DNA of 64,000 nt, taken from Dipteris shenzhenensis. Taxonomy: Eukaryota. This document shows, piece by piece, positions 467 through 45,093 of the stretch (position 1 is the stretch's first letter; the number at the start of each line of letters is the position of its first letter). A model generated the notes under the pieces. The model had not been told where the DNA came from, ran no database searches, and saw nothing but the letters and a program-made list of their open reading frames with translations. A program made the translations under genes and the position numbers. Location of the stretch: NCBI GenBank assembly GCA_047967505.1, contig CM106538.1; one strand, 5' to 3'.

Positions 467-467
467 A

Positions 468-4365: not shown

Positions 4366-4545
4366 GCATAGTGAGTTCCACTAGAAACAAAGCAGTTGTT
4401 GGTGAAGGTCAGCTTCTGAAAATTGTCATATTAATAATATGCAAATACCCATTGACAAGATAACAACAATTGAGAAACATCACATGAGAACACACCTTAC
4501 AATGGAAGTTTGGGAGATTAAGAGGGAGAAAATCAACACCATTTT

Positions 4546-7881: not shown

Positions 7882-8250
7882 CCCCTGTCATTATGATTAT
7901 AGAGAATTAATTATGAACAAATTACAACCAAAGAATTTCATAAGACCATCAAACATGTCCTTCTAGAGGGGAAGAATGGCATTGGTGCAAATCTCTAGAA
8001 TGCATGAATGAGTCTATACAAAATTTTCATGAAAGCATGAATTATTTCCCTAAAAATTTTAGCAATTTGATACAACTTTTTCTAAAGCATGAATTATTTT
8101 CACCATTGTCATGACCTGATTCATGCATCTAATAGTAGCCATCCCCTCTCATTACGATGACAAGAAATTGATTATGAACAAACTACAACCAAAGAATTTC
8201 ATAAGACCAACAAAGTTGTCCTTGTAGCGGGGGGAGGATGGCACTAGTGC
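7876..8250 (+). repeat. Diverged ~110 bp direct duplication over the transposase start region
   Basis: AGCCATCCCCT...CAACCAAAGAATTTCATAAGACCA...ATGGCA at ~7876 and ~8137. Confidence 0.7.
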
Positions 8251-9054
8251 CATTCTCCATGTGGGATTGTGGAGAATGGCATTGGTGCCATTCTCCATGT
8301 GAATTCGGCTTTCCTATGGAGAATTGCATATCCCATCTTTGAAAAGGGGAATGGAACCAGTGCCATTCTCCCCATGCATTGACTTGAGAAAAACATTTGT
8401 CTTCATAAGATGAGAACAGACTAGTGCCATTCTTCCTTTGGAAGACAAAATTTTGACTTAGGACTTTGCGGATGCGTCAATTTTACGAGCAAAAACCTAT
8501 GAGCAGGTTTATCCGAGCGTGTTTTTCAAGAGATTTTTAAAAATATTTTTCTTTAGGAAACATGGTTTTTACACTTTTATTTTCACTAGAACTAGATCCC
8601 TTTATCATAAAAATATACAGACTAGTCACTCATTCATTTTTACACAACATAATTTTCTTATTTAGAGACATCCCTTTGTACCCCTGTTATTACCTTAAAA
8701 AAGTGTTGATTTCTTTAAGAAACATTCCTCATAATCACTCTCAATGTAATAATACTATGCATATATAATTACTTATTAACACATTTATATCATATGGCAA
8801 TATCTTTTTAGTGTTTTTATAGCATATTTATGGACATGTTTCTAAAGAAGTTTAAATTACTATAAATAAGTATTCACTTGGGCTTATATATCACTCTCAT
8901 AAAATACATGTAATATTCAATACTATATATGAAAGATTTTCCAAAATATAACTCCACAGATGTGCTCAAATGGGGTGTTCCGATCAATTTGAGTGGTTGA
9001 ATGACTATATTTGGACATTGGATATGAAAGTTATGTCACTTTTAAAAGTGCTGT

Positions 9055-9086
9055 CCAAGGTAGTTTCGCCAGCGAAACTACCTTGG
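9055..9086. other. Perfect 15 bp inverted repeat with 2 nt loop
   Basis: CCAAGGTAGTTTCGC-CA-GCGAAACTACCTTGG. Confidence 0.9.
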
Positions 9087-9494
9087 GAGACTTGCTTCAA
9101 AGGGGTTTCACTGGCGAAACTACCTGGATGGCTTGCTTCAATGAGTTTTCTTTGAAGAAACTCTTTCATGAAGATAGGTTGAGAGAGGGTTTTCAATGTC
9201 ACCCCCTATTAAGTAAAAGTTGTAAGAAGGATCATAAGGGAATTTTCATAGAGAAGTCTACTCTACATGTGGGTTTCTTTAAAAGCCATCCCATTATGCT
9301 CTCACCATTCCTACAGATTCACCTAAAGATTTTTGTATAAAATAGGCATTGCTATAATACTTTGCATATTTCTAAGTGAAACTATGTTTTCTTCTGATCG
9401 ATTTTTGCCATATTTATGCATAGTTGGAAGCTTTTTTTTTCCTTCGCTCGAACGCTCGGAAGATTTCGCTCAGAAAATGCTCATCCCCGGACTT

Positions 9495-10700
9495 TGCCTT
9501 GGGAGAATGCCAATGGTGCCATGCTCCCTTTGCAAAGCCAAAATTTTATATTAGGACATTGCAATGGGAGAATGGCACTGGTGCCATTCTCCCTTTATGA
9601 AGGCAAACTTTGAATCAAAACATTGCATTGGGAGACTGGCACTCATGCCATTTTCCCTTTGCAAAGCCAAGATTCTGAATCATGACATTGCAATGGGAGA
9701 ATGGCACTAGTGCCATACTGTCTTTGTGAAGTAGAAATTTTGAATCACGACATTATGGCATAGCCAAAGTTTTGAATCGAGACATTGCAACGGGAGAATG
9801 GCAGTGGTGCAAATTTAAAATTTAAAATTTTTGGCTTTGTAATAGGAAAATAGAGAATGGCACTAGTGCCATTCTCCCATTGGAAAATGGAGAATGGCAC
9901 TAGTGCCATTCTCCCAATGGAATGTCGTGATTCAAAATTTTGGCTTCACAAAGGTAGAAGGGCACCAGTGCCATTCTCCCATTGGAATTAGTGGAATGTC
10001 AATCTATAGGTTTAGTTTGTCTAGATTACCACTAGCGGAGAATGGCAGGGATGCCAATCTCATGCTGGCAACTACATAATGACACTGAGATCATCAAACT
10101 CACATGTGGAATGGAATCGGACACCACTCTCCTATGGTCACAGTCTCCGCTCTGTAGAGTTCATATGGATTTGTGTCAATCTCTGTGGAGAATGGCAGTG
10201 GTGCCAATCTCATACCATGACCTGAAAACATGCACAAGGAATCCTAAACTCACATGTGCATTTGCACTTTTGCCATTATCCTACTGTAGCCAATAAAATT
10301 AGTGGAATGTCAATCTATAGGTTTAGTTTTCCTAGATTACCACTAGCAGAGAATGGCAGTGATGCCAATCTCATGCTGGCACCTACATAATGACACTGAG
10401 ATCATCAAACTCACATGTGCCATTTTGACTCTGTGAAGCCATTTTGACTCTGTGAAGCCAAAACTTTGAATCTGGGAGAATGGCACTAGTGCCATTTCCC
10501 CTTTGCACAGCCAAGATTTGAATCGGGAAATCACAATGGGAGAATGGCACTGGTGCCATTCCCCCTTTGCAAAGCCAAAGTTTTGAATTGGGACATTGCA
10601 ATGGGAGAATGGAAGTGGAGCAAATTTAGAAATTTTTAGCTTTGCAAAATGGGGAGATTGGAGGATGGCAGTAGTGCCATTCTCCCATTGCAATGCCAGA
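9495..10700. repeat. ~64 bp minisatellite built on the GAGAATGGCACTAGTGCCATTCTC palindrome, with an embedded satellite block at ~9985-10420
   Basis: GGGAGAATGGCAC units near 9501, 9566, 9630, 9695 and again 10474, 10538, 10603. Perfect palindromes at 9853-9876 and 9889-9914. Confidence 0.85.
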
Positions 10701-10716
10701 ACTTGAGACCATAGAC

Positions 10717-10718
<2 letters not shown>

Positions 10719-10794
<76 letters not shown>
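10719..10794 (+). repeat. (TG)38 microsatellite
   Basis: Pure TG run of 76 bp. Confidence 0.97.
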
Positions 10795-10796
<2 letters not shown>

Positions 10797-11184
10797 AACA
10801 TGGTATTCATTTGAAACCATACACTATTTTACTTCCATTTATTCATATATGTGGTAAAGTTGATGGATATTACTTTATGAAACCTAGCTCATTATGTGAG
10901 TTTATTCACGTTAGTTTGGTTATGCTAGGTTGGTTAAGTTACAAATTTTTATGTTAGAGTATGTTTTTCTTGATCAAGGTCCAAGTAATGTAAAATTTGA
11001 AGGTGTAGATTGAATTAGTTGATGAGAATGTGATTTTTCTCCATGTTAAAAAAATTGTAATCATGCGCATCATTAGATCGCAAGCTATGGATTTTTTTAA
11101 AGGAAGATGAGAATAGGTTAAATAAAAGGCGTGAGGACAATGTAAAAAAGGAAGAAAATGAGTGTCGACAATGTAAAATAGAAA

Positions 11185-11420
11185 TGAAAGAAATGCATAC
11201 GTTAGATATGTTAAATGAAAGAAATAAAATAAATGCATAGGGAAAATATGTTAAATAAAAGAAATGCATAGTTTAGATATGTTAAATAAAAGAAATTCAT
11301 AGGTTAAGTATGTTAAACAAAATATATGCATAGGCTAAATAAAAGAAATGCATAGGTTAAGTATGTTAAACAAGATATATGCATAGGCTAAATAAAAGAA
11401 ATATTTTAAATAAAAGACAA
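11185..11420 (+). repeat. AT-rich degenerate tandem repeat
   Basis: Recurring AAAGAAATGCATAGGTTAAGTATGTTAAA-type units. Confidence 0.7.
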
Positions 11421-11974
11421 GCATAAGCTAAATACTTGATCGATATTACTTCAGTTGTGTGAGTTCTTTCATGTTAGCTTAGTTATGCTTTTGAAGCTTC
11501 CGAAGTAAAGGTCCAATAAAAGTAAATTTTTAAGTTGCAAACTGAATTAGTTGACGAGCATCTGCTTTTCTCTACATTTAACAAAAAATATCGGCTTTGG
11601 AAGCATTAGATCGGAAGCGTAGGTTATAATAAAAGGAGTGCATAGGTGGAAGAAAAGGAGTGGCATAGATTTAAAAGGTGGAAGAAAAATAGTAGCATAG
11701 ATTAAATAGCTGGAAGAAAAGCTTTAAGGGGACCTTTTGTGACCCCAAAATGTCCCTTGATGCTTTTAATTATACTTTTAAATTGCATTCAAAATTGATT
11801 CAGATATTATAAAACATTAGTAGCATTAGAAATAGATCCAAAAGACAAACTTGGTGTAGATGAACTACTACTACCCACGGTCTAGAGATCTAGATGCACA
11901 ATATGCTAAGATAATGTATAGAAAAGGAGCGGATGAAGGGCAGAAAAGGAGCTTCATAGATTAAATAGCTTCAC

Positions 11975-12795
11975 ACACCAAACACTATTTGTGTGTGGGA
12001 TGGAGATGGCATAGAACTGCTCCAAAAGATTCTCTACAAGAATATACCAAACTCTTGCTTTCTATGTGGGTTGGGTAGACACTTTATTAAGGAATGTCCC
12101 TCCTGGAATAGTCATATAAAGGAAAAAGAAGAGGAATAGTCATATAAAGGAAAAAGAAGAGGAAAAAGAATAGTCAAGACAAATTTTCATTCCTGAGTGT
12201 ATACATTCACAGAACATTAAATGACCTAAAACCACAAAATTTTAGAAGATGGTTGTGTGCTAGAGCACTCAATCCTGATTTCTTATCTCTTCATAGAAAG
12301 TCAAAGTAGGAGGCCTAAAAATAAGTTGGCAACTTAACTAGATTGATGACAAGAGAGTGTGGGTCTATATAGAACACAAAGAGGGTAGAGGGGGTGCAGC
12401 TTTGGGCATTGCTAAGCACCTAGTTCAAGAAATAGGGGGTTCTAACCAGCTTTTATTGCAATGCAGTAGGAATAGAATTCATTAACCCCTACCTAGTGTG
12501 CCAAATGTTTTTAGTCTACGCGCCTAACTCCGCAAGAGATAGAGCACTCCTTTGGAGTGGTAAGATTCTTCTTGAGACAATACTATTGTCTTGATTGATA
12601 CCTAAGAGGACACATCTTCACCTAGACAAAATTCAGATAGGTCATTTCCACAAAAAAGCTCAATTGGATAGAGCTTATTTCTCTAGAAGGATTTTGGCTA
12701 ACACCACTACTTTAACATCCCTCTTATTCTCTGATCATAAGCCAATTTTAATATCCCTTGAGAAGGGTGTAGGGAGGATTCTTAGATCCTAGTTT
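11975..12795 (+). mobile_element. Degraded L1-type LINE fragment (ORF1 zinc knuckle plus ORF2 endonuclease)
   Basis: QKILYKNIPNSCFLCGLGRHFIKECP near 12022-12100, then VYAPNSARDRALLW and LDRAYFS...SDHKPI APE motifs. Confidence 0.75.
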
Positions 12796-12964
12796 AATAA
12801 CAGTGATTTTAATAGGTTACATTAAAAAAAAGTGCATAGGTCGGATAGGTTAAATATATTAAACTTGTTAAATTTGTTTTTTAACGAAAAGCAAAAGGTT
12901 AAACTAATGAATGTAAAAAATTGAAAAACCCTATACCTTGTCTTTCATTTTGCTCATTGCCCTA

Positions 12965-13880
12965 TGTTAATCGCCTGTTTTCAAGCAAGGTCTCGTCAGC
13001 GATCCCTATAATTCCCTTGGCGATTGGAACGTGAGCAATGACACACCTTGCTACTGGAGTGGCGTCTCTTGGACCAATGTCCCAAAGAATGCTGTTCCAC
13101 GGGTTGTTAGTCTAGCCATCATCGGTAAAAAGCTCTCTGGTTCCATACCCTGTGCTTTTGGAGTGCTCGATTAGCTACGCTGCTTGAGCCTGCAGGGAAA
13201 CAGCATCAATGGAACTCTCTCGCCCGAGCTCTTCAACACGACGTCCCTTCGCACCATCTTGCTTGGAGGCAACCAAATAATGGGAGCTTTGCCTCCTCAG
13301 ATCAGTCGCCTGAGTAACTTGCAGACTTTTGATGTTTCTAGTAACAAGCTGCTCGGCGACATTCCTCAGTCTATCACAGGATGCCGCCAGCTGCAAACTC
13401 TCATTCTCGCCAACAATTTTTTCTCGGGGCCAATTCCGAATGGCATGGGCAAGAATCTCACTTCCCTAGAGCAACTCGACCTTTCAACCGATTCTTTCAT
13501 GTGCAATCCCAGACGATCTTGGGGGCCTTTCATCTTTATAGGGAGCACTCAATATGTCCTTCAACCACCTCTTTGGTCCGATTCCCTACAGTCTAGGGAA
13601 CCTTCCTTACATTGTGAGCCTCGATTTGAGTCACAACAATCTCAATGGTAAAATCCCACAAGATGGTTCATTAGCAGAACAAGGTCCAGGCCCTTTCCTC
13701 GGCAATCCAGAACTTTGTGGATTCCCCCTGACTACTGTATGTCCCCCCTCTCCATACGATTCTCCGCTTCCGAGCTTGCCCATGGAGGGGTCGTCACCGG
13801 CCTCAAAAGGGACTTCACAAACTCGGACTCACAATCCAGTCCTCCTCGATTCTGCCCCTGCCTCAAGACTCTCTGTGTGA
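12965..13880 (+). pseudogene. Captured LRR receptor-like kinase/protein ectodomain fragment
   Basis: LRRNT_2 cap FKQGLVSDP..SLGDWNVSNDTPCYWSGVS, plant LRRs (LxLxxNxxxGxIP) and C-cap FLGNPELCGFPL. Has a stop and a frameshift, and no TM or kinase domain. Confidence 0.9.
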
Positions 13881-14068
13881 GCTGTGGTGAGTAAAACTCT
13901 AAGACTCTGAGACTCCTCTCCAATTCTGCTAAATTGAAATAATTTTTTTGGAATGAATAGACAGTGAATGAGGGAAAGGCATCAATTGAAATGAGAGAAA
14001 AGGACTTGATTTTTCTGAAATGTAGATTTGAAAGTTAAAAGTGATAGTTTGAAACTACTAAATAATTC

Positions 14069-14793
14069 AAATTTTGAAATATAGCTCTTCCCACCATTGT
14101 TCCCTTTTGAATTTTGGATATATAGAGTGGCACTTATGCCATTCTCTCAAATATTAAATTTAAATTCAAATTCATATTGATATTTTTAATTTCAATTTGT
14201 ATTTCAAATTGAAATTATTCTTTTGAAATTATATTTCAAAACCTAAATTCTAGCTTTTAGATTTTGATTTCAAGCTAAATTTCAATCTCAATTTTGATTT
14301 TCATGATTGAATGGCAAATTTAGAGATTGAAATTCTAATTTTAAATGGAGAATGGCACCAGTGCCATTCTCCAAGACCTCATAAGAAGTCCTTGAGAGTG
14401 GCACTAGTGCCAATATCCCTTGAGATAAATAAAATTTTGAAATATAGCACTTCCCGCCATTGTTCCCTTTTGAATTTTGGATATATAGAGTGGCACTTAT
14501 GCCATTCTCTCCAATATTAAATTTAAATTCAATTTCATATTGATATTTTTAATTTCAATTTGTATTTCAAATTGAAATTATTCTGTTTGAAATTGTATTT
14601 CAAAACCGAAATTCTAGTTTTCAAATTTTGATTTCAAGTTAAACTTCAATCTCAATTTTGATTTTCATGATTGAATGGCAAATTTAGAGATTGAAATTCT
14701 AATTTTAAATGGATAATGGCACCAGTGCCATTCTCCAAGACCTCATAAGAAGTCCTTGAGAGTGGCACTAGTGCCAATATCCCTTGAGATAAA
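14069..14793 (+). repeat. ~360 bp AT-rich tandem duplication (2 copies)
   Basis: AAATTTTGAAATATAGC...CCCTTGAGATAAAT at ~14069-14430 and ~14432-14793, each with palindrome copies. Confidence 0.88.
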
Positions 14794-14982
14794 TTGAAAG
14801 ACTTGCAACACTAGTCAAGATTTATGTGTAAGATTTGGTACCAAAATAAAAAATATCAATGATACACTACCAATAAAATCAATGGAATGCCAATCTACAT
14901 GTTGAGTTTGTGCAGATTTCCACTGGGATCTACATAATGGAACTTAGATCCCCAAACTCACATGTGTATTGCAACCTGGCAC

Positions 14983-16246
14983 TGTTGACTCTGTGCCAAC
15001 ATGAACTTATGAAGAAAGAGAAGGTGATACAACTTTGTGATACAACTTTGTGTTACAACTTTGTGTTACAACTTCTAGACACAACTTTATGTTACGACTT
15101 TATGTAACAACTTTGTGTTACAAGTTTGTGTTACAACTTCTACATGAAGAGAGAGAATGTGTTACGACTTTGTGACACAACTTTGTGTTACAACTTTGTG
15201 TAACAACTTTGTGATACAACTTTGTGACACAACTTTGTGTTACAACTTTGTGTAACAACTTTGTGTTACAACTTCTACATGTAGAGAGAGAAAGTGATAC
15301 AACTTTGTGTTACGACGTTGTGACACAACTTTGTGTTACAACTTTGTGATACAACTTTGTGTTACAACTTTGTGATACGACTTTGTGTTACATGCAGAGA
15401 GAGAAGCTCTCCAACTTGTATAAATACCCCATAATGGAATGAAGCCCACACTCTTGGGGCATTGTGTTGAGTCTACATTGGTATTCCAAGCATTTGTCTC
15501 AAGTGTCCATGCTTCCTTGCACTGCACGTCCAAAAGCATGTCCTAACCTTGCAACCCTTCTCCCCTCTCCTCCAACCCTGCAACCCATCCTCTCCCTCTC
15601 CTCCTCCCTTCTCCCCCCTCCTCCTCCTCCTCCTCCTCCCTCCTCCTCCCTCCTCCTCCTCCTCCTCCTCCTCCCTCCTCCTCCTCCTCCTCTCTCCTCC
15701 GTCTCCCTCCTCCTCTTCCCTCCTCCTCCTTCCTCCTCTCTCTCTTACTTCACCCATGCTCTTACACCTTCTTCCTCTCCCACTCCTATGCTTTCCTAAA
15801 CCCTTAAACTCAATGATCTACGAGGGAGACGAGTTCTCCACCATGTATTTTACTCTGAACCTTGGATCCTCCTCCTAACCCTGAACTCCTTCTAAACCTT
15901 GGAACCTCCTTCTGAACCCTGGAACTCTTTCTAACCCTGAACTCTTTCTAAACCCTGGAACCTCCTTCTGAACCCTTAAACTCCTCCTAAACCCTACAAC
16001 CCCCAATGAAGGCGAAAGCCTTCATTACCCCAACAACAATGGTTTACGTGCCTTTTACACATGCTTGCATTATGTTTACTCACCACACTTAAGCCTACGT
16101 CTCTCACCGGAACACGACTCGAGGTCCTAAGCTACACATATACTACAACGACAATCCCAATATATCTGTAGGTGACAAAAAGCCTCGGAACACTGCAACA
16201 TAGAGAACCCAGCTCTTCCTACGGAAGCGGTAGGAAAGAGCCAACA
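14983..16246 (+). repeat. 5' LTR (1264 bp) with 13 bp TGTGTTACAACTT repeats, (CCT)n tract and CTAAACCCT-like repeats
   Basis: TGTTGACTCT...GAGCCAACA, matching 26191-27457. Confidence 0.97.
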
Positions 16247-16248
16247 TT

Positions 16249-16266
16249 TGGCGCCGTTGCCGGGGA
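16249..16266 (+). promoter_or_regulatory. PBS complementary to tRNA-Asp
   Basis: TGGCGCCGTTGCCGGGGA is the reverse complement of the plant tRNA-Asp 3' end and is typical of Athila. Confidence 0.9.
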
Positions 16267-16786
16267 GACTAGCGTCTCAAGTCGCGACGAGTAAACATGC
16301 GTAGGTAGGTATAAAAGCCACATGATGTACAATTAGGCTAGGTAGTAAACACGGTTGCGTAGAGCTTTCAATTACGATCATTTTACCTTTTTACAGAAAG
16401 GCAAACCGAGCTCTCCATAAAGAGTTATGGCTCGGGAAGAGTTTAGGGTTAAACCCTAAACCTAAACCCTAAACCTAAAATCCAAACCTATAAAAACCTA
16501 CTCCACCCCCCCTCATTCTTCATCTCACACTTTTTGCCTCCATTCTCTTCCTCCTTCCGAGCCCCACGCAAGACACTCCTCCCTCTCCATCGACCGCCCC
16601 CTTACTCCTATCCTCGCCATGTAAGTGACATCGAGCCCTTCTCGCAGCAATGACCTAGCCTTCCACCCACCGTCCATTGTTCCGCGACAATCCCGTTCTA
16701 TCGAGAAAGACTTGGAGAGCGTCAGGTAACCACTTCGCCTTGCTTTTCAAGTTCCGTCTTTCCGTTTTTTGTTGTTGCTCTTTTAT

Positions 16787-18136
16787 CCCTCCCCCTCCAC
16801 CACCACCTCCCCCTCTCCCCCTCCCCCTCTCCACCCCCTCTCCCCCTCCCCCTCTCCACCACCACCTCCCCCTCCCCCTCTCCACCACCACCTCCCCCTC
16901 TCCCCCCTCCACCACCATCTCCCCCTCTTCCCCCTCCCCCTCTCCACCACCACCTCCCCCTCCCCCTCTCCACCACCACCTCCCCCTCCCCCTCTTCACC
17001 TTTCCCCTCCCCCTCCCCCATCCCCCTCTCTCACCTTGCTCTCTCCCACCCCCTCTCTCTCTCACTCTCCCCCTCATTCCCGCCCCCACCCATTAATCTC
17101 TCTCTCCCCCTTACCCCCCTCGTCCCCCCATCCCCCTCAACCCCCCTCTCCCTCTCGTTCCCCCATCCCCCTCACCCCCCTCCCCCTCTCGTTCCCCCTT
17201 ACCCCCCTCACCCCCCTCCTCCTCTCGTTCCCCCATCCCCCTCACCCCCCTCTTCCTCTCGTTCCCCCATCCCCCCACCCCTTCTCTCTCTCTCACCCCC
17301 CTCTTCCTCTCGTTCCCCCACCCCCCATCCCCCTCAACCCCCCTCTCCCTCTCGTTCCCCCATCCCCCTCACCCCCCTCCCCCTCTCGTTCCCCCTTACC
17401 CCCCTCACCCCCCTCCTCCTCTCGTTCCCCCATCCCCCTCACCCCCCTCCCCCTCTCGTTCCCCCTTACCCCCCTCACCCCCCTCCTCCTCTCGTTCCCC
17501 CATCCCCCTCACCCCCCTCTTCCTCTCGTTCCCCCATCCCCCCACCCCTTCTCTCTCTCTCCCCCTTTCCCCCCTCGCCCCCCATCCCCCTCTCTCTCCC
17601 TCCCCCTTACCACCCACCCCACCCCACCCATCCCACCCACCCCCTCGTTCCCGCGGCGGCGCTCCGCAGAGTCGCCGCCGCCTCCCCCGCCCCGCCTCGC
17701 CCGCCGCCGCCGCGGCGCACACAGCGCCGCCCCCCGGCTACCCGCCCCGCCAGCGGCTGCGCCGCCAGCGGCGGCGCCCCCTCACCCGCCCGTCCTTCAC
17801 CCCTCTCCCCGCTCGCCGTCCTGCGGCGGCGCACCCAGCGCCACCGCCCCGCGGCGGCGCAGCCCCGCGCCCCCGCCCGCAAAATACCCCGCCCCGTCCC
17901 GCGCCCCTCCTCCCGCGCCGCCCCCGCCCCGCCCGCGGCGGCGCTCCGCAGAGACGCCGCCGCCCCGCGCCCCCACGCCCCGCCCCGCGCACTGCCTCGC
18001 CAGCCCCAACCCCTTACCCCCTCGCCACCCCTCGCCCCCTGCGCAACCCCCCCCTTTCCCCCCGCGCAAACCCCCCTCACCCCCCGCGCAAACCCCCCCT
18101 TTTCCCCCCGCGCCAACCCCCCCCCTCAGCACCTCC
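16787..18136. repeat. Extremely C-rich low-complexity/tandem tract in the 5' leader
   Basis: CCCCCT/CCACCA repeats, then GC-rich repeats, ending at an A-run. A variant occurs at 53087-54768. Confidence 0.9.
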
Positions 18137-18896
18137 AAAAAAAAAAATAATAATAATAAAATAAAAAAAAAATTTAAAAAAAAACCCTAACCTAAAACTA
18201 ACCTCAGGTTAGTTACTAACTACGGTTAGGTTAGTCGATTAACCCTAGGTTAGTTAGTCCTAACTACAGTTAGGTTAGGTTAGTTAGGTTAGGTTTAACT
18301 AGAGTTAGGTTAGCTTAGTTAACCTTAGGTTAGTTTAGTTAGCCCTCGGTTAGGTTAGTCAGTTAGTATCTAACTACAGTTAGTTAACCTCCCAGTTACA
18401 GTAACTGGGAGGATCTAGGTTAGTTTCCCTAACTAGAGCCACTTCGTTTCAACCCCTCGGTTGGCCTTAAAGTCCATTCACACCACCATTAGGACCCCCC
18501 AAACGCCAACTTTAGCCCTCCTTTAACCCCTCGAAACTCATCCGTTTGGGACCCAAATTGAACCCCGTTTGAACCCAGATTTCACACACGGAAACACCAC
18601 GTTACGGGGTATTTTTCCAGCCCATTGCACACCATTTCCGCATCCCTAGCACACGTTCGTTCGCCCCCCCGTGTGAGCCTCATTTTACATTTATTCACTC
18701 GTATTTTCACGCCGCGACCTCCGATTAACGATCCGTCTGCACCGGCACATTTCCCTACACACGTAGGACAATCCTAGGCACATTATTAACACGACGGTCC
18801 CTACACATATTAACATCACTCTAACTCTCCTAACGACACCACCTCCACGCCCGCCCTTGGGGTAGCGATCCCCTTGGCAAATCACGCACCATCTGC

Positions 18897-20672: not shown

Positions 20673-20739
20673 GCAGCCGAGTTCATCTACATCAACTCCC
20701 GAGCCTCGAATAAAAGAAGCTCCATTCCCGAATGCAGAG

Positions 20740-21867
20740 GTGGAGAAGGCTCGTTTTCAGGCACTTCAGCAATGGGTCCAAAATGAACAAGCTCAATTTG
20801 AGGCTCAGAAACAAGCTCAAGACCCACTCCATGACTTGGCCCCACAAAGTATTGATACTGTACTCGAGCCTTTGTTCCAACAACAGACTCCACAACAGAA
20901 TGTACCACCCCGTCAACTTGAAGGAGCTGCACTCTCTAGCATCCTGAGTTGCCCTGTGTCCATTCCCATCGGAATCCTCTTACGAGATTGTCCCAATCTC
21001 TGGGAGAGTTTCAAAGGATGGATTGAACTCGCAAATCCCTTTCCACCTATGAACGACATTGATGATATTCCTGTGCGGATGGGTGAGAAAGATGACATAC
21101 GCAACATCACTGTGCCTTTGATCCACAAGGCATATAATGAAATCCAAGCCATAGTGGATGGTGGCGCAGGTGTCAATGTCCTATCAAAGGAGCTTTACGA
21201 AGAATGGGGTCTCCCACCAATGCAAAAGGCTTATTTCAACATACGCCTTGCCGATGATTCACGGGCTAAACCCTTGGGAATAGTGAATGGTGTGTCCACA
21301 AAGATCGCAGGAGTCCGCTTTTCCCTTCAATTCACAATCTTGGATCTCCCCAAAAAATCCTATCAAATCTTACTGGGACGTCCTTGGTTACGGGAAGCAT
21401 CAGTCCTCCATGACTGGGGAACGGATAGATTGACAATCCAGAATCGAGACACTGCAGTCAGGGTGAATGTGGGGACAGGAGCTATTAAACCCATTGTTCC
21501 TAGAGCATTGGATGACACATCTTCCACGACAATTTCGAGCAAATCAGATCCCTTGCAACAGCATGCCATAGCAGGTGACTCACAAAGCAATGTCAATAAC
21601 TGGATACAAACATTGGCAACCATTGACAACTGCCATTCATTAGACCCCATCTTCTCACAGATAGATGTTAACACACTACAGGTTGATCCTCCACCGACAC
21701 ATGAAGAACCAATCGATCTAGAGATGCCTTTCTTTATGGCTGACTCGAATGGGATAATGAACCTGAAGAAGGTACCCATACCAATGATGACTCCGATTTT
21801 CCTTGGGACCTTGAAACAGAGGCTGCGAATGCTGCAATTGAAGATCAAATCTTTGATAATGACCTAG
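20740..21867 (+). CDS. Aspartic protease ORF in a different frame from gag and RT
   Basis: AIVDGGAGVNVL and ILLGRPWL motifs. Confidence 0.88.
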   Translation: MEKARFQALQQWVQNEQAQFEAQKQAQDPLHDLAPQSIDTVLEPLFQQQTPQQNVPPRQLEGAALSSILSCPVSIPIGILLRDCPNLWESFKGWIELANPFPPMNDIDDIPVRMGEKDDIRNITVPLIHKAYNEIQAIVDGGAGVNVLSKELYEEWGLPPMQKAYFNIRLADDSRAKPLGIVNGVSTKIAGVRFSLQFTILDLPKKSYQILLGRPWLREASVLHDWGTDRLTIQNRDTAVRVNVGTGAIKPIVPRALDDTSSTTISSKSDPLQQHAIAGDSQSNVNNWIQTLATIDNCHSLDPIFSQIDVNTLQVDPPPTHEEPIDLEMPFFMADSNGIMNLKKVPIPMMTPIFLGTLKQRLRMLQLKIKSLIMT

Positions 21868-21884
21868 CCATTCTGCATGCCCTA

Positions 21885-26050: not shown

Positions 26051-26190
26051 ATTGACTACACATTGTGTGGTGCAAAAGAATTACAGCAGGAACGACTCGC
26101 ATACCCACTGTATTACGCACATGGCATCTCAACTCTGAAATCAAAATAATCCATAACCCGAGGACGGGTAATAAAATGGATCCGGGAGTA

Positions 26191-27457: not shown

Positions 27458-27462
27458 GGCAC

Positions 27463-33400: not shown

Positions 33401-36400
33401 AGTGGTACCAATCTCATATCATGACCTGAAAACATGCACAAGGAATCCTAAACTCACATGTGCATTCTTCTATGTAGTGATCACTGTCTCCGCTGTGTAG
33501 AGATCATATGGAATTGTGTCAATCTCTGATATCATCAAACTCACATGTGGATTCGAATCGGACACCACTCTCCTTTGATCACTGGAATACCCCTCCTAGA
33601 ATAGTAGGGTAAACGGTTGTACAAGTTGAGAATGGCAGTGGTGCCAATCTCTTATTAGGCCCTAAGAAATGGCATTGAGAAGCCTAAACTCACATGTGCA
33701 TTCTTCTATGTAGTGATCACTGTCTCCGCTATGTAGAGATCATATGGAATTGTGTCAATCTTTGTGGAGAATGCCACCAGTGGAGAATGGCAGTTGTGCC
33801 AATCTCATACCATGACCTGAAAGCATGCACAAGGAATCCTAAACTCACATGTGCATTTGCACTTTTGCCATTATCCTACTGTAGCCAATAAAATTAGTGG
33901 AATGTCAATCTATAGGTTTGTCTAGATTACCACTAGTGGAGAATGGCAGTGATGCCAATCTCATGCTAGCAACTACATAATGTCACTGAGATCATAAAAC
34001 TCACATGTGGAATGGAATCAAACAACACTCTCCTATGATCATTGGAATACCCCTCCTAGAATAGTAGGGTAAACATTTGTACAAGTGGAGAATGGCAGTG
34101 GTGCCAATCTCTTATTAGGCCCTAAGAAATGGCATTGAGAAGCCTAAACTCACATGTGCATTCTTCTATGTATTCTCCACAGAGATTGACACAAATCTCT
34201 GTGGAGAATGGCACTGGTGCCAATCTCATACCATGACCTGAAAACATGCACAAGGAATCCTAAAATCACATGTGCATTGGCACTTTTGCCATTATCCTAC
34301 TGCAGCCAATAAAATTAGTGGAATGTCAATCTATAGGTTCAGTTTGTCTAGATTACCACTAGCGGAGAATGGCAGTGATGCCCATCTCATGCTGGCAACT
34401 ACATAATTACACTGAGATCATCAAACTCACATGTGGAATGGAATAGGACACCACTCTCCTATGATCATTGGAATACCCCTCCTAGAATAGTAGGGTAAAC
34501 ATTTGTACAAGTGGAGAATGGCAATGGTGCCAATCTCTTCTTAGGCCCTAAGAAATGGCATTGAGAAGCCTAAACTCACATGTGCATTCTTGTATGTAGT
34601 GATTATTGTCTCCGATGTGTAGAGATCATATGGAATTGTGTCAATATCTGTGGAGAATGGTAGTGGTGCCAATCTCATACCATGACCTGAAAACATGCAC
34701 AAGGAATCCTAAAATCACATGTGCATTGGCACTTTTTCCATTATCCTACTGCAGCCAATAAAATTAGTGGAATGTCAATCTATAGGTTCAGTTTGTCTAG
34801 ATTACCACTAGCGGAGAATGGCAGTGATGCCAATATCATGCTGGCAACTACATAATTACACTGAGATCATCAAACTCACATGTGGAATGGAATAGTACAC
34901 CACTCTCCTATGATCATTGGAATACCCCTCTTAGAATAGTAGGGTAAACATTTGTACAAGTGGAGAATGGCAGTGGTGCCAATCTCTTATTAGGCCCTAA
35001 GAAATGGCATTGAGAAGTCTAAACTCACATGCGCAAAGATCATATGGATTTGTGTCAATCTCTGTGGAGAATGCCACCAGTGGAGAATGGCAGTGGTGCC
35101 AATCTCATACCATGACCTGAAAACATGCACAAGGAATCCTAAACTCACATGTGCATTCTTCTATGTAGTGATCACTGTCTCCGCTGTGTAGAGAGCATAT
35201 GGAATTGTGTCAATCTCTGTGGAGAATGCCACCAGTGGGGAATGGTAGTGGTGCCAATCTCATACAATGACCTAAAAACATGCACAAGGAATCCTAAACT
35301 CACATGTGCATTCTTCTATGTAGTGATCACTGTCTCCGTTGTGTAGAGATCATATGGAATTGTGTCAATCTCTGTGGAGAATGCCACCAGTGGAGAATGG
35401 TAGTGGTGCCAATCTCATACCATGACCTGAAAACATGCACAAGGAATCCTAAACTCACATGTGCATTCTTCTATGTAGTGATCACTGTCTCCGCTGTGTA
35501 GAGATCATATGGAATTGTGTCAATCTCTGTGGAGAATGCCACCAGTGGAGAATGGTAGTGGTGCCAATCTCATACCATGACCTGAAAACATGCACAAGGA
35601 ATCCTAAACTCACATGTGCATTCTTCTATGTAGTGATCACTCTCTCCGCTGTGTAGAGATCATATGGAATTGTGTCAATCTCTATGGAGAATGCCACCAG
35701 TGGAGAATGGTAGTGGTGCCAATATCATACCATGACCTGAAAACATGCACAAGGAATCCTAAACTCACATGTGCATTCTTCTATGTAGTGATCACTGTCT
35801 CCGCTGTGTAGCGATCATATGGAACTGTGGCAATCTCTGAGATCATCAAACTCACATGTGGAATGGAATCGAATACCACTCTCCTATGATCACTGGAATA
35901 CCCCTCCTAGAATAGTAGGGTAAACATTTGTACAAGTGGAGAACGGCAGTGGTGCCAATCTCTTATTAGGCCCTAAGAAATGGCATTGAGAATCCTAAAC
36001 TCACATGTGCATTCTTCTATATAGTGATCACTGTCTCCGCTGTGTAGAGATCATAGGGAATTGTGTCAATCTCTATGGAGAATGCCAATAAAATTAGACT
36101 ACCACTAGTGGGGAATGGCGGTGATGCCAATCTCATGCTGGCAATTATGTAATGACATTGAGATCATCAAACTCACATTTGGATTGGAATCGGACACCAC
36201 TCTCCTATGATCACTGGAGTACCCCTCCTAGACTAGTACGGTAAACATCAATCTATAGGTTTAGTTTGTCTAGATTACCACTAGCGGAGAATGGCAGTGA
36301 TGCCAAACTCATGCTGGCCCTAAGAAATGGCATTGAGAATCCTAAACTCACATGTGCATTCTTCTATGTAGTGATTACTATCTCCGGTGTGTAGAGATCA

Positions 36401-39400
36401 TATGGAATTGTTTCAATCTCTTATTAGGCCCTGGAATGTCAATCTATAGGTTTAGTTTGTCTAGACTACCACTAGTGGGGAATGGCAGTGATGCGAATCT
36501 CATGCTGGCAACTATATAATGACATTGAGATCATCAAACTCACATTTGGATTTGAATCGGACACCACTCTCCTATGATCACTGCAATACCATTCCTAGAA
36601 TATAGGGTAAGCATTTGGACAAGTGGAGAATGGCAGTGGTGCCAATCTCATAATAGGCCCTAGAAAATGGCATTGAGAAGCCTAAACTCACATGTGCATT
36701 CTTCTATGTAGTGATCACTGTCTCCATTGTGTAGAGATCATATGGAATTGTGTCAATCTCTGTGGAGAATGCCACTAGTAGAGAATGGCAGTGGTGCTAA
36801 TCTCATACCATGACCTGAAAACATGCACAAGGAATCCTAAACTCACATGTGCATTGGCACTTTTGCCATTATCCTACTGTAACCAATAAAATTAGTGGAA
36901 TGTCAATCTATAGGTTTAGTTTGTCTAGATTACCACTAGCAGAGAATGGTCGTGATGCAATCTCATGCTTGACCTAAGAAATGGCATTGAGAATCCTAAA
37001 CTCACATGTGCATTCTTCTATGTAGGGATCATTGTCTCCGCTATGTAGAGATCGTATGGAATTGTGTCAATCTCTCTATTAGGCCCTGGAATGTCAATCT
37101 ATAGGTTTAGTTTGTCGAGACTACCGCTAGTGGGGAATGGCACTAATGCCAATCTCATGATGGCAACTATATAATGACATTGAGATCATCAAACTCACAT
37201 TTGGATTGGAATCAGACACCACTCTCCTATGATCACTAGAATACCCCTCCTAGAATAGTAGGGTAAACATTTGTACAAGTGGAGAATGGCAGTAGTGCCA
37301 ATCTCTTATTAGGCCCTAATAAATGGCATTGAGAAACCTAAACTCACATGTGCATTCTTCTATGTAGTGATCACTGTCTCCACTGTGTAGAGATCATATG
37401 GAATTGTGTCAATCTCTGTGGAGAATGCCACCAATGGAGAATGGCAGTGGTGCCAATCTTATACCATGACTGAAAATATGCACAAGGAATCCTAAACTCA
37501 CATGTGCATTGGCACTTTTGCCATTATCCTAGTTTCATTCTCCGCTAGTGGTAATGTGCATTCTTCTATGTAGTGATCACTGTCTCCGATGTGTACAGAT
37601 CATGTGGAATTGTGTCAATCTCTGAGGAGAATGCCAACAGTGGAGAATGGATGCGGTGCCAATCTCATACCATGACCTGAAAACATGCACAAGGAATCCT
37701 AATCTCACATGTGCATTCTTCTATGTAGTGATCACTGTCTCCGCTATGTAGAGATCATATGGAATTGTGTCAATCTCTGTGTAGAATGCCACCAATGGAG
37801 AATGGTGGTGGTGCCAATCTCATACCATGAGCTGAAAACATGCACAAGGAATCCTAAACTCACATGTGCATTCTTCTATGTAGTGATCAGTGTCTCCGAT
37901 GTGTAGAGATCATATGGAATTGTGTCAATCTCTGAGATCATCAAACTCACATGTGGAATGGAATAGGACACCACTCTCCTATGATCACTGGAACCCCATT
38001 AGAATAGTAGGGTAAACATTTGTACAAGTGGAGAATGGCAGTGGTGCCAATCTCTTATTAGGCCCTAAGAAATGGCATTGAGAACCCTAAACTCACATGT
38101 GCAGAGATCATATGGATTTGTGTCAATCTCTGTGGAGGAGAATGGCAGTGGTGCCAATCTCATATCATGACCTGAAAACATGCATAAAGAATCCTAAACT
38201 CAAATGTGTATTCTTCTATGTAGTGATCAGTCTCTCTGCTGTGTAGAGATCATATGGAATTGTGTCAATCTCTGTGTAGAATGCCACTAGTGGAGAATGG
38301 TAGTGGTGCCAATCTCATACCATGACCTGAAAACATGCACAAGGAATCCTAAACTCACATGTGCATTCTTCTATGTAGTGATCACTGTCTCCGTTGTGTA
38401 GAGATCATATGGAATTGTGTCAATCTCTGAGATCATCAAACTCACATGTGGAATGGAATAGGACACCACTCTCCTATGATCACTGGAACCCCTCCTAGAA
38501 TAGTAGGGTAAACATTTGTACAAGTAGAGAATGGCAGTGGTGCAAATCTCTTATTAGGCCCTAAGAAATGGCATTGAGAACCCTAAACTCACATGTGCAG
38601 AGATCATATGGATTTGTGTCAATCTCTATGGAGGAGAATGGCGGTGGTGCCAATCTCATACCATGACCTGAAAACATACACAAGGAATCCTAAACTCAAA
38701 TGTGCATTCTTCTATGTAGTCATCACTATCTCCACTATGTAGAGATCATACGGAATTGTGTCAATCTCTCTGGAGAATGCCACCAGTGGAGAATGGCAGT
38801 GGTGCCAATCTCATACCATGACCTAAAAACATGCACAAGGAATCCTAAACTCACATTTGCATTGGCACTTTTTCCATTATCCTACTGCAGCCAATAAAAT
38901 TAGTGGAATGTCAATCTATAGGTTTAGTTTGTCTAGATTACCACTAGCAGAGAATGGCAGTGATGCCAATCTCATGCTGGCCCTAATAAATGGCATTTGA
39001 GAAGCCTAAACTCACATATGCATTCTTCTATGTAGTGATCACTGTCTCCGTTGTGTAGATATCATATGGAATTTTGTCAATCTCTGTGGATAATGGCAGT
39101 GGTGCCAATCTCATACCATGACCTGAAAACATGCACAAGGAATTCTAAACTCACATGTGCATTGGCACTTTTGCTATTATCGTACTGCAGCCAATAAAAT
39201 TAGTGGAATGTCTAGACTACCACTAGTGGAGAATGGCAGTGATGCCAATCTCATGCTGGAACCTACATAATCTTCCTGAGATCATCAAACTCACAAGTGG
39301 ATTGGAATTGGACACCACTCTCCTAGAATACCCGAGGGTAAACATTTGTACAAGTAGAGAATGGCAGTGGTGCTAGTCTCTTATTAGGCCCTAGAAAATG

Positions 39401-39435
39401 GCATTGAGAAGCCTAAACTCACATGTGCATTCTTA
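27463..39435 (+). repeat. ~12 kb complex satellite of three ~150-160 bp monomers in shuffled order (starts ~14850, before the nested LTR element)
   Basis: Each monomer ends in AAACTCACATGTG and contains GGAGAATGGCAGT(G/A)(G/A)TGCCAATCTC. Exact 155 bp spacing at 35149/35304/35459/35614. Confidence 0.95.
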
Positions 39436-39938
39436 TTAGCATCAGTGCCCTTCTCTAGAAGGTCAGGTGAGAAAACTCTCATGTGATAACCTTCATATAA
39501 GGAGAATGGCACTGGTGCCATTCTCTGATTCTCTACAATCCATGTGATGAATCGAACTTCTACCATTCTCCTTAACATCATGGAGGATGGCACCAATGGC
39601 ATTATCCTCAAACTCTCATGGAGGATGGCACTTGTGCCATTCTAAACAAACTCACAATCCATGTGTTCAATGGCATTTGTGACACTCTTCTAACATCATA
39701 TTATGTTGGAGAATGGCACGAATACCATTCTTTATTATAACCATCTTAACTTTGGTATTGTATATATTTTCTTACTGTGTTGGTGTAGTTTTTCATAATG
39801 CATATATAAGTTGCTTCGCCTTGGTTATTTTGTTAATGGAAGTTGCATTGTGGTTGTAATATTTCCTACTACAGTTATGATTTTCTATTATACATTTCAT
39901 TGTGTCCTTAGTTCTTTTGTTAACAGAACATTGCAAGA

Positions 39939-42916
39939 ATGGCTAGCAAGGGAAAGAGAAAGGTTCGAGAGGTGTCAGTTTATGATGGAGTTAGCTCTGG
40001 AAGAGGATGGTTTTTGGATATATACAATAACGAGCTCCAAAAACTCCATAAAGTGCATTGTTTTGTGAACATCCAAGGAACAACTTTTGAAGATGTTGGA
40101 CAAGTTAAAGAGATGGAGGATACCGAGAAAGACAACGTTCCTTGTCTCAAAATTCATACATTGGGAGGCAATGTGTATCAATTGGATCCTGCTTGTTTTG
40201 ATCATGCGAGGATGAATGCTAATGGGGAGGACACGATGATATCTAGGGGTTGGATTAATGAGCCAGAAAATTATACCAACCAACAGATATTAGAAAGCTT
40301 TGATTTGGTAACAAAAGGGATAAAGCAAGATATAAAAAAGAGTAGAAAAGTTTCGAAAGAACCAAGAAAAGTGATGTTGAGGGATCAAGCTCTCAAGTGT
40401 CTCAAAACACATTGAAAGAGAAGGCTAGAGAGACCGGTGAGGAGGAAACAATAGGTAAGAAGGAAATAAGGTCAGATGGAAAAACAAGCATTGGGGATAA
40501 ACTGGAGGCTAAAGACAAAGAGACAACTTTAGGAGGAAAATAGGGAGGTATGGGAATAGTCACTGATGGAACTGGAAGTGGAGGTGATGCAACGGGGAGT
40601 AGTGAGACACATGTAACAGGACAAATCATCTGAAGCAACTATCATCCTGTATAAGAAAATCCAGCCAGATGTTGACTTTAAGGCACTACAAAAGAAATTG
40701 GAAAGGAAGGACACAAGTATGACAGGCTTGATGGAGTACATAGAGTACTTCCCATTTGGTTTGGAGTTTGAGGTGTTGATTCCAGTGATGAACTGCTTTA
40801 GAGCACCAAGCCAATATGTGTACAGGACATTGACCCTCAGCTATGTCAGTGACTTGGTCAAGAGTTTTGCAATGAATGCACGACCTCCTGCAACATGTGC
40901 ATATCTTATGCCTTACCACACAGGCACAAATACTCCGATGTGCAAGGAAGAGATAAAGGTGGAAAATTTAAAGGAGTATAATTATTGGATTCTCGTAGGG
41001 CAACATTCGATTTATGCTGCAAGGATGTTTATAACTAAAGCACATGGAGAAGCCTTCAATCAACAAAAAGGTTTCTATACACGGAGGAAGGCAAGAATTA
41101 TTGTGTCAATGCACCAGTTGAAGCAAGTTGTAACATATCATCAATGGCCAACATGGAGGCACAGACCGTTTTGAAAAATCAACCATATATCGATATCTTA
41201 CAACACCTAAGGGCACAGTGGATTGCATTCGGATGACCAAAGAAACTAGCCCAAGGCCTTGTCAAAGGGCATAAAGATCGACAAAGTTGGGATGTGAGTA
41301 ATAAACTTTGTTTTGTATGCATTTTTATTTCAAGAATGTTTATGGCTTTGTAAAAGAAATGATAGTAGTGTCAATTCCCTGATGTGAGAATGGCACTAGT
41401 GCCATTCTTCTAGTTACCAAGTCATGCTTTTGACATGGTAATGGGAGAATCGCACTAGTGACATTATTATCTCTATTACATGATTTGGATTAGAAGAATG
41501 TCTAAGATGATTTTGATTTTTTTATATAGAATTCTATAGGAGTTGCAAGCGTATCGATGGGCGCAAAATTTGCTACCAAGGACACACACATGGTTACATA
41601 TGATGATGACATCTACGAACAATGGATTAGGATTTTGACATTGGTGAAGCAGGGTGATCTTGAGGGTCAAAATCCCACAATAACATATATGAGGTGTCTG
41701 CTAGGATTGGAAGACGAAGATGTATGTGCACTTCAAGCAGAGATTGAGTCTAAAGAAATAGTCTTAGTCAAGTCAAGCAAAGACAAGGACTCCATTGAAA
41801 TGTCTCAACGGGCAATGGAGATTAAGCATGATAGAGCCCTGAAAGAAGCGCTCATCAAGGAGTTCAACTCACGTCACCATTTGCCCCAACATCAAACATG
41901 GGATGCCCTTGCAACTTACTTTAAAATTGATCCAATTGTTTATCAGAGCTTCAAGGGTTCATGTGAGTCATGGGTCAAAGAGAAGCTACAAGTTGGCAAG
42001 TCCACACCTGATTTCCCAGAAGCCGCGTCAATCTATGTTGATTGGGTGATTAGTTCAATAGAGGGTAACAAGTCTACATCACAGTCTTGTTTTCCTTGGA
42101 CAATTATTCAAGTGAACATGGAGATGGAGAGGGAGAGCTTTCTAACATGTCACTCCAAGGCTTGACACCTCAGAGGGATCTGCCAAAGGCATGTGTTGGG
42201 ATAAGGATGCCTTCAAGAAGTTGCTCTGTGGCTTGATGGAGACCGTTGCCACTCCGTCACAGAATGTATTGCTATCATTTATGACAATGATAGAGATGGT
42301 AAATCTCAAGGAAGCTATGATAGAGGCTCGATTTTGGCATAGAAGGTTTGTGGGTGTTATCCATGAATCGGATAGTGCACAAAAGGGTTTGTGTGAGACC
42401 TTCTGTTTTTTGTCATTTATCAGCTCACATGATGGGTTTGATGGATTTGAGCACATGTTAGAAAACACAAGGCCATACACAATAATTGAGGACAATATTC
42501 TTTATTCTGATGAGGACGATGAGTATGAAAAAGAGGCGGTTGTGAAGCATGGCATCATCAAGGAGTGCATCAGGTGCTATTGTAGTAGGGAACATGAAGT
42601 TGTTGTTGACGTCTTTACTAATGGATGTGTGGCATTACAAGCATTGTCAAGCAAAAGAAAAGTGATCTCACTAGTGAAGACATCCCAACAGGCGATAGAG
42701 GTCGAGGCTATGTGTGTGGCACATGCATCAAATAATCCCCATATTAAGATTTGGTCTAGCATTGAGAGGCCTCTTGAGACACATAGAGCTGATTCACCTA
42801 TCGATGAAGGAATTAAAGAGGGTGAGCATCACATTGAAGACTTGCGACCTTTAACTGAAGCAGATCTTAATGCTATCCCAAAGATTACATTGGAAGATTT
42901 GGAGCAAGGTCTTTAG
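39939..42916 (+). pseudogene. Cargo gene 1: ParB/Srx-like domain plus degenerate N6/N4 DNA-methylase-like C-terminus; intron ~41294-41529
   Basis: YWILVGQHSIYAA resembles the ParB GxHR motif. The GTGAGT donor and TATATAG acceptor give an in-frame WD|NSIG join. C-terminal YEKE..IKECIRCYCSREHEVVVDVFTNGCVALQALSSKRKVISL resembles beta-class MTase motif X/I. Contains stops and frameshifts. Confidence 0.55.
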
Positions 42917-43735
42917 CTACTCATTTATGCCTTGTGTATTTAGTTTCAAAATAATATGACTTTTAAGGATTTTCTCGATTGCACATACTCTCATTATATT
43001 AAAGAGATTAAACATTAGGTATGATAAAATTGTGTGACATAATGACATGGGGAATGGTACTAGTGTCATTCTCCCTATGTCGGGTTATATGTAAGAGGTA
43101 CTATTAACATTTTATGTGACCTCATATGGAAAATGGCACTAGTGCCATTCTCTCTTTGTGGTTATGTAGAAATGGTAATACTGTTATGTTCCTTTCTTGA
43201 ATCTATGTTAGTTGAAAGCATTACAGAGATTAAAAATTGTATAGTATTAACTATGCTACCAAAGTTTGGATTTGGATGCTTTCCACAAATCTATTGGACC
43301 AAAGTAATACAATATCTATGCTTTTAGATCATGCATTGTACATTTCTTTTGGGACATGGGGGGAGGCACTAGTAGTATTCTCTCCTCCCAATGAGGATAT
43401 AGAGAAAGGCACTAGTGGCATTCTCCATAACCTTATATGTAAAATGGCACTAGCACCACCCCAAGAGAAGAATGGCACTAGTGCCATTTTCTCTATGAGT
43501 TCAGAGAGAAAGGTTGCACTATTTGCACTCAATTGCCCTTTAGAGAGATTGGCACCAGTGCCATTCCCCAAAAAGATAATGGAATCAGTGAACGGCGATG
43601 AATAATGTTCGTACTTTATTTTTATTTATTAGTTTCATATGATTTTGTGCTTCGACATTGTTGAATACACTCTAAAGAATCAAAATATTTCTATATTCCT
43701 CAACTTCCACAGGGACCAATGATGTATGGAAGGAT

Positions 43736-45002: not shown

Positions 45003-45093
45003 AGGTACATATGTCAAAGTGTTTTTTAATTTTATCTCAAGTCTATATAACTGTTGTTGCAACTAATTGAATTTGTCTTTTGTGATGTAGATA

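Follow-up and report, generated by a model that had tools for sequence, protein, structure and literature searches.

The window analysed here, a stretch of 64,000 nucleotides of contig CM106538.1 from Dipteris shenzhenensis (assembly GCA_047967505.1), contains a giant DNA transposon of the cut-and-paste type with two divergent genes, one for a transposase and the other for an accessory protein with a predicted ParB-like domain. In the non-coding DNA of this transposon a palindrome of 26 bases, GGAGAATGGCACTAGTGCCATTCTCC, is repeated many times, and its form and position suggest that it may be a binding site for the accessory protein. An initial annotation of the window had already pointed out the palindrome as a possible site for a dimeric protein encoded by the element.

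The transposon has split the pol gene of a Ty3/gypsy retrotransposon, so that gag, protease and reverse transcriptase (RT) are found at 2005-4079 and the remaining RT, RNase H and integrase at about 46540-48637. Residues 301-470 of an intact Ty3 pol of the same window align with 3462-3965 and its residues 489-569 with 46541-46783, and since pol is interrupted between these alignments the insertion is bounded at about 4025 and 46534 (Table 1). The two copies of the 8-bp target duplication, CTCTTGAA (4017-4024) and TTCTTGAA (46535-46542), are identical at 7 of 8 positions. Five bases in from each end there are terminal inverted repeats that match at 18 of 21 positions, and an equally high local alignment score was obtained in 3 of 500 shuffles. 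Both these repeats and the TTGGGAA repeats next to the left one are unlike the palindrome, of which the nearest copy is 3.0-3.9 kb away from either transposon end. The initial annotation had taken 7972 to 43570 as the element, and these positions turned out to be the outermost copies of the motif only and not the boundaries of a mobile element. A second copy of the 97 bases that precede 7972 (7875-7971), 86% identical, lies at 8136-8232, and each of the two is followed by a palindrome, so the left "flank" belongs to the repeated region. One contig of the sequencing run X2 joins 46516, near the right end, to the sequence that starts at 39400, with 19 other letters between them, which might reflect either an assembly artefact or a copy with another arrangement.

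All counts of the palindrome refer to one copy of the transposon family, within the window. With up to 3 mismatches allowed, the 26-base form has 22 matches, whereas none was obtained in any of 100 dinucleotide-preserving shuffles (mean 0.00, maximum 0), and the motif is therefore beyond chance. Both of the perfect copies that had been reported are present, one as a perfect 26-mer (9889-9914) and the other as a perfect 24-mer (9853-9876; the 26 bases at 9852-9877 are off only at the first one), and every variant that had been listed, from near 8237 to near 43468, was recovered, with starts at 8233, 8271, 8346, 14347, 14711, 39501, 41385, 43049, 43128, 43401 and 43467. Further close copies, which the initial annotation did not include, are found at 9567, 9696, 9954, 10475, 10539 and 10660. 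That an imperfect form of the motif lies in every monomer of the satellite is essentially right; the satellite variant occurs in 73 copies in 27524-39356, mostly spaced by 149-161 bases.

A search for the 18-base core of the palindrome that allows as many as 4 mismatches yields 107 copies, 37 of them outside the satellite and 70 in it, and every one is within 7975-43548. No copy was found in 1-7974, in 14762-27527, which holds a nested long terminal repeat (LTR) retrotransposon, or in 43549-64000, and the motif is thus, as first claimed, absent from the flanks and the nested retrotransposon; the core-free sequence consists of about 21.5 kb of the window outside the element and the 12.5 kb of the nested retrotransposon. 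Searched for with up to one mismatch, the 10-base half-site GAGAATGGCA gives 226 matches, while 50 shuffles had 3.64 on average and never more than 8. Of the 226, seven are outside the span 7972-43570 or inside the nested retrotransposon, including a neighbouring pair (45771 and 45786) and a further one at 46490. The pair constitutes two adjacent half-sites, TGCCATTCT, at 45771-45795, downstream of the phosphatase block of the accessory gene, and one contig of run X1 diverges just before 45810 into letters with a half-site and satellite-like sequence; some copies of the family may carry sites downstream of the phosphatase block too. A metagenome scan with a 20-base core resulted in three loci, which are regarded as unrelated because each is one isolated palindrome without BLASTN similarity to the window.

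The palindromes occupy only non-coding DNA, either between the two divergent genes or in two gaps of the accessory gene (Table 1), and none of the 107 core copies overlaps the regions that align with homologues of the transposase or the accessory protein. This restriction to intergenic DNA and to gaps between coding blocks means that they are not the ends of the transposon. Between the end of the satellite array and the ATG at 39940 there are about 560 bases. The left palindrome array is directly followed by a perfect (TG)38 microsatellite (10719-10794). The nested retrotransposon, which has the target duplication GGCAC, is inserted into a palindrome half-site and is itself outside the palindrome system.

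Table 1. Features of the transposon and its palindromes in the 64,000-nucleotide window.
Feature	Position	Strand	Remarks
Whole DNA transposon, ~42.5 kb	4025..46534		Inserted in the RT region of a Ty3/gypsy pol gene
Left terminal inverted repeat TATTAGATAAAGTGGGACAAA	4030..4050	+	Followed by four TTGGGAA repeats at 4061-4138
Right terminal inverted repeat	46509..46529	-	Reverse complement TATTAGATAATTTGGGAAAAA
Transposase gene, Pfam DUF7869 family	4561..7881	-	Nearly full length; needs a few frame changes or introns
Four palindrome copies	7972..8371		First ~85 bases upstream of the transposase start
Repeated block	7875-7997		Recurs at 8136-8258
Left array, 14 palindrome copies	9502..10685		Mostly in tandem units of 64-65 bases
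Two satellite-type units	9979-10419		Inside the left array
Six palindrome copies	14122..14782		Inside a duplicated 364-base unit
Nested young Ty3/gypsy LTR retrotransposon	14983..27457	+	LTRs 14983-16246 and 26191-27457, 99.6% identical
Satellite array, ~11.9 kb, 155-base monomer	27524..39380		Imperfect form GGAGAATGGCAGTGGTGCCAATCTC in each monomer; Tandem Repeats Finder
Five palindrome copies	39501..39737		200-440 bases upstream of the second-gene ATG at 39940
Accessory gene or gene pair	39940..45002	+	Coding blocks ~39940-41295, 41530-42821 and 44148-45002
ParB/Srx-like N-terminal domain (predicted)	40767..41165	+	Residues 51-183 of the open reading frame 40617-41174; motif WIIxGQHSIxAAK
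Two palindrome copies	41385..41469		In non-coding gap 41296-41529, bounded by GT and AG
Six palindrome copies	43049..43573		In non-coding gap between the block ending ~42821 and the phosphatase block (44148)
NIF/FCP1-type phosphatase domain	44169..44993	+	C-terminal end of the accessory gene

The shape of the site is sharply delimited. Among the 13 right-hand copies, which have unrelated contexts, conservation is at background directly beyond the 26 bases, and as it stops at these edges the motif must be a unit of its own and not the passenger of a longer repeat. Within the unit, two conserved half-sites of 10 bases surround a more variable centre of 4 bases. Outside the satellite (37 copies) the mismatch rate per position rises from 0.10 in the half-sites to 0.25 in the four bases of the centre, and in the 70 satellite copies from 0.115 to 0.51; both half-sites have at most one mismatch in 20 of the former copies and 45 of the latter. 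Half-sites that are better kept than the centre are what would be expected for a dimer reading two half-sites, and the earlier suggestion of an element-specific site of dimer form has in this respect held.

The transposase gene is colinear, from 7881 to 4561, with residues 1-1064 of the homologue P0002 (1069 amino acids, 59% identity), and the open reading frame (ORF) 5028-6575 matches Pfam PF25273 (DUF7869) with an E-value of 2e-45. Named relatives of the transposase come from a liverwort. P0002 was compared with Pfam at E up to 10 and matched only DUF7869, apart from one match at chance level. A TnpA-like part of the transposase had been suggested as another candidate for binding the palindrome, and this did not survive, since Pfam matched only DUF7869 and gave no TnpA-like domain in the window ORF or P0002; Transposase_21 and Transposase_24 (TnpD/TnpA) were likewise not found in either of them at E up to 10. 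P0002 had no match in a sequence search of the PDB, the viral contigs searched with the transposase gave no match, and a literature search on DUF7869 gave no papers. KDZ/Zisupton, Sola and Dada were considered as the superfamily of this transposase. The target duplication of Sola1 is 4 bp, which differs from the 8 bp found here, and Pfam has a KDZ model, to which P0002 had no match at E up to 10. In the size of the target duplication there is a likeness to Kyakuja and Zisupton (KDZ) elements, for which 7-8 bp is given in the passages available (PMC12730594).

The second gene is less straightforward to delimit. Residues 1-987 of the fern protein P0056 (990 amino acids) are colinear with 39939-44993, so the accessory gene, or a conserved pair of co-oriented genes, crosses 43570. 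The homologues P0047-P0050 (339-436 amino acids) end at 41296-41311, which is the end of the first coding block and just before a palindrome-bearing gap, and the locus may therefore be two genes and not one; from the alignments, these ends suggest either a separate short ParB-like gene or a gap that is retained in transcripts. The reasoning on the palindrome is the same for one gene as for two. Parts of 39400-46600 are present in 4 of the 7 sequencing runs, in contigs that are other copies with 90-99% likeness; no RNA run was listed among them, the RNA label of run X3 being a guess. Among the run contigs listed none bridges 43570, and no splice joints that fit the proposed gaps were found in them.

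The four long plus-strand ORFs in 39924-42916 have no match in Pfam. One of them, ORF 40617-41174, has 43 homologues with E-values of no more than 1e-3 and no match in a sequence search of the PDB, and its AlphaFold2 model, made with 34 homologues, has a mean predicted local distance difference test score (pLDDT) of 80. The top Foldseek matches of the model are all ParB/Srx proteins, with PadC at E 2.6e-3 followed by Noc, ParB, sulfiredoxin and KorB. Realignment gave a Z-score of 9.4 and a root-mean-square deviation of 2.3 Å over 94 residues against residues 37-132 of the Myxococcus ParB 7bnk, and the top ten realigned structures are ParB, PadC, Noc and KorB proteins, the ParB/KorB/Noc type having Z-scores of 8.2-9.4. 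Judged by this model, the accessory gene includes a ParB/Srx N-terminal fold. The consensus of 35 aligned family members is WIIxGQHSIxAAK, and this motif is presumably closer to the DGQHR-type branch of the ParB/Srx superfamily. ParB, KorB and Noc load at palindromic sites.

Further downstream, the block 41530-42165 has no match in Pfam, and the Atlas and PDB sequence searches gave nothing above chance for it. For the block 42146-42916, Atlas gives N6_N4_Mtase clusters a feature score of 0.90, and by eye its layout is methyltransferase-like in a degenerate form; its fold, predicted from an alignment of 3 sequences, has a pLDDT of 48.8, and the Foldseek matches are an unrelated mix of alpha/beta proteins that we did not use. 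No word-based homologues of this block were found at E 1e-3 among longer proteins or at E 0.01 among those of similar length. Pfam found no 2-oxoglutarate (2OG) oxygenase or DNA methyltransferase in the window ORFs or in the fern proteins P0056 and P0057. The phosphatase block is clearer: ORF 44148-45002 matches PF03031 with E 1.9e-14 and aligns with residues 717-987 of P0056 with E 9e-58, and P0056 likewise ends in a NIF domain. A ParA/CbiA-type gene was not found in 12 chosen ORFs or in 59 of 128 ORFs (at least 70 amino acids, outside the nested retrotransposon); the remaining 69, mostly in repeats or in a second retrotransposon, were not all scanned with Pfam.

We consider docking of the accessory protein to be the best reading of the palindrome, because the sites are element-specific, dimer-shaped, non-coding, distinct from the ends of the transposon and linked to a gene of the ParB superfamily. 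The palindrome would then be a reiterated cis-acting site of the giant transposon at 4025-46534, a proposal drawn from the DNA sequence to which we give a chance that falls just short of even. A dimer of the accessory protein would dock on the two 10-base half-sites with the loosely constrained centre of 4 bases between them, and the many sites would concentrate the protein on the regulatory DNA of its own element. The effector modules, i.e. the NIF/FCP1-type phosphatase and possibly a middle region derived from a methyltransferase, could there act on the element's transcription or chromatin, be it as regulation or as a defence against silencing, and the array of sites might have grown by tandem duplication into the 12 kb satellite. 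In its fullest form, the hypothesis is that a eukaryotic descendant of ParB/KorB/Noc docks as a dimer on more than 100 sites of its own and brings a phosphatase of the RNA polymerase II carboxy-terminal-domain type, and perhaps a module derived from a methyltransferase, to control or protect transcription, while duplication of the site has given rise to the 155-base satellite; we think it unlikely that all of this is correct.

Several observations weigh against the docking of the accessory protein. The structural match covers the nucleotide-binding N-terminal domain of ParB only and stops at ParB residue 132, and it leaves out the helix-turn-helix that reads parS. The cytidine triphosphate (CTP) motif of ParB is GERRxRA (GERRxRAAK), and as the corresponding GQHSIxAAK lacks the arginines of that motif, a clamp loading of the ParB type is doubtful. 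No DNA-binding domain was detected in the accessory protein with Pfam, the PDB sequence search or Atlas; a stretch that resembles a helix-turn-helix was noticed by eye. The ParB-like ORF that was first put forward as a candidate binder has thus kept its N-terminal fold, whereas the part that would read the DNA lies outside the match and the CTP arginines are missing. The putative likeness to a methyltransferase comes from the Atlas score, as the fold model of that block is of too low a quality to be used. Compared with contigs of run X1, the accessory gene of the window has frame-breaking indels after 40622 (8 bases), at 41102 (2 bases) and after 42159 (26 bases); to judge from the contigs, the gene has probably decayed here and may be intact in other copies. 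In six of the 64-base units (15 pairs) the pairwise identity is 0.83 in the motif and 0.59 in the spacer, a contrast that is overstated because the comparison was ungapped. Tandem duplication can, moreover, multiply any sequence, and 70 of the 107 copies are satellite monomers that are related by descent.

This last point leads to the idea that the palindrome has no protein partner at all, and that it is a hairpin-prone sequence of which slippage, unequal crossing-over and local duplication have made many copies and which is tolerated only in non-coding DNA. Most copies are indeed in tandem units of 64-65, 155 or 364 bases, a hairpin of -11.9 kcal/mol (z -6.3) is predicted for a perfect copy as single-stranded DNA, and tandem repeats of transposons commonly seed satellites. 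The solo copies at 39501, 41385, 43049, 43128, 43401 and 43467 do not fit well, however, as they keep the 26-base unit while their flanks are unalike, and hairpin stability would favour neither the half-sites nor the centre, although the half-sites are better kept. A ParB-like gene paired with repeats has also been found independently in red algae. We find an origin without a partner rather unlikely. The palindrome was also considered as a small mobile insertion, but by eye the flanks of the solo copies have no duplication in common.

The palindromes could also be bound by some other protein. A host factor might read them as promoter or enhancer elements: both divergent genes have clusters 85-440 bases upstream, and at about 39804 a TATATAA, noticed by eye, is situated between the ATG of the accessory gene (39940) and the cluster upstream of it. 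A promoter, on the other hand, would need far fewer sites than the more than 100 seen here, a 12 kb array among them, and neither the three other retroelement promoters nor the remainder of the window has the motif. A host factor that recognises it is not known, and no search for one was made; on balance we hold this to be quite unlikely. Short reiterated motifs in DNA transposons usually bind the transposase, and it is conceivable that the copies are the ends or subterminal repeats of a nested element at about 7968-43569, or internal sites for the DUF7869 transposase. The copies cluster toward both sides of the span, and the first and last of them (7972 and 43545) are oriented like terminal inverted repeats, but any two copies of a palindrome resemble inverted repeats. 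There is no target duplication flanking 7968 and 43569, the 97 bases beyond the left "end" have a second copy within the span, P0056 is colinear across the right one, and no transposase-like ORF lies within the span. A single nested insertion would give no explanation for copies in three separate non-coding compartments of the accessory-gene region, and the true ends carry a different motif at several kb from the nearest palindrome. Sites for a transposase are consequently the least probable of these readings, and we would be surprised if they were correct.

The window is crowded with nested retroelements. In the right flank there are Ty1/copia fragments, with RVT_2 at 49876-50196 (minus strand) and a copia-type gag with Pol_BBD at 62827-63966 (plus strand). 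C-rich low-complexity tracts of the CCCCTC type, with a GC content of up to 0.64 and a strong skew, are located at 16600-18200 and 52900-54800, and they are carried by the nested Ty3/gypsy retrotransposon and by a second copy of its family at about 51400-61000. In the centre of the transposon there is a fragment of a leucine-rich repeat (LRR) receptor-like gene at 12971-13880 (plus strand; Pfam LRR_1, LRR_8 and LRR_4, E 1e-12 to 1e-13), which, from its domains, looks like captured host DNA.

The system shares features with several known ones. Bacterial ParB-parS, KorB-OB and Noc-NBS also combine a ParB/Srx N-terminal fold with multiple palindromic sites on the same DNA. They differ in that the arginines of the CTP motif are missing here, and a helix-turn-helix and a ParA partner were not detected in the ORFs scanned; furthermore, a parS site has about 16 bases and the present one 26, and a chromosomal transposon has no need of partition. 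In En/Spm (CACTA) transposons the TnpA protein binds 12-bp subterminal motifs, which are sometimes in inverted pairs and overlap promoter DNA, and a short reiterated motif within a plant DNA transposon is common to both. The ends here are CATAG... and ...TAGTC and not CACTA, the target duplication is 8 bp and not 3 bp, the sites are 3-4 kb from the ends, and with Pfam there is no Transposase_21 or Transposase_24 domain. The motifs of VANC, an accessory protein of VANDAL transposons, are short and not palindromic. In Arabidopsis, where VANDAL elements are of the Mutator type, the targets of VANC often form tandem repeats, and an element-encoded accessory protein acts on short motifs in the non-coding DNA of its own element (Hosaka et al. 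2017, PMC5735166), as is proposed for the transposon described here. The protein family and the transposon superfamily are unrelated to those considered here, and VANC has been shown experimentally to act in this way, while the present system is inferred.

The closest likeness, in a comparison by description, is to giant transposons of algae. In red algae, Plavaka transposons (EnSpm/CACTA-type) encode PAG3, in which a ParB-like domain at the N-terminus is combined with a 2OG oxygenase, and tandem arrays of inverted repeats adjoin its gene; the authors propose, without experiment, binding and modification of the transposon by its own protein, and state that recognition and modification of own DNA by accessory proteins has been experimentally shown only for VANDAL/VANC (available parts of Petroll et al. 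2025, 10.1101/2025.02.11.637652). The giant DNA transposon, the accessory protein with an N-terminal ParB-like domain and the inverted-repeat arrays next to its gene are all in common, and here the latter feature is represented by 5 palindrome copies upstream of the accessory gene and 8 in its gaps. What differs from PAG3, as far as those parts describe it, is the DUF7869 transposase with its 8-bp target duplication in place of Plavaka, the NIF/FCP1-type phosphatase in place of a 2OG oxygenase, a host on the land-plant side and the expansion of the array to a 12 kb satellite. In the brown-algal element Sola1-1_Ec32 of Ectocarpus, which is 21.5 kb long, a gene for a ParB-like and DNA methyltransferase protein of 1104 amino acids is on the strand opposite to the transposase (passages of Dinatale et al. 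2025, PMC12477816). By description this is similar, with a protein of about 1000-1100 amino acids that starts with a ParB-like domain and is encoded opposite to the transposase; a methyltransferase is only a weak lead in the present case (the Atlas score), and the passages on Ectocarpus mention neither a phosphatase nor a palindrome array. A search of the literature on ParB together with transposons gave only these two algal reports, and none for land plants or with a NIF phosphatase.

That an element-encoded protein docks on the repeats of its own element is an idea proposed earlier for giant algal transposons. The present locus extends the algal pattern to another transposase family (DUF7869), to the land-plant side, as indicated by the named homologues from a fern and a liverwort, and to a different effector, a NIF/FCP1-type phosphatase. 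Since the site is sharply defined at 26 bases and has more than 100 natural variants, the hypothesis of binding can be directly tested. The array of sites seems here to have turned into a satellite of 12 kb, and if the hypothesis is true, this would be a concrete route from the protein-binding sites of a transposon to satellite DNA.

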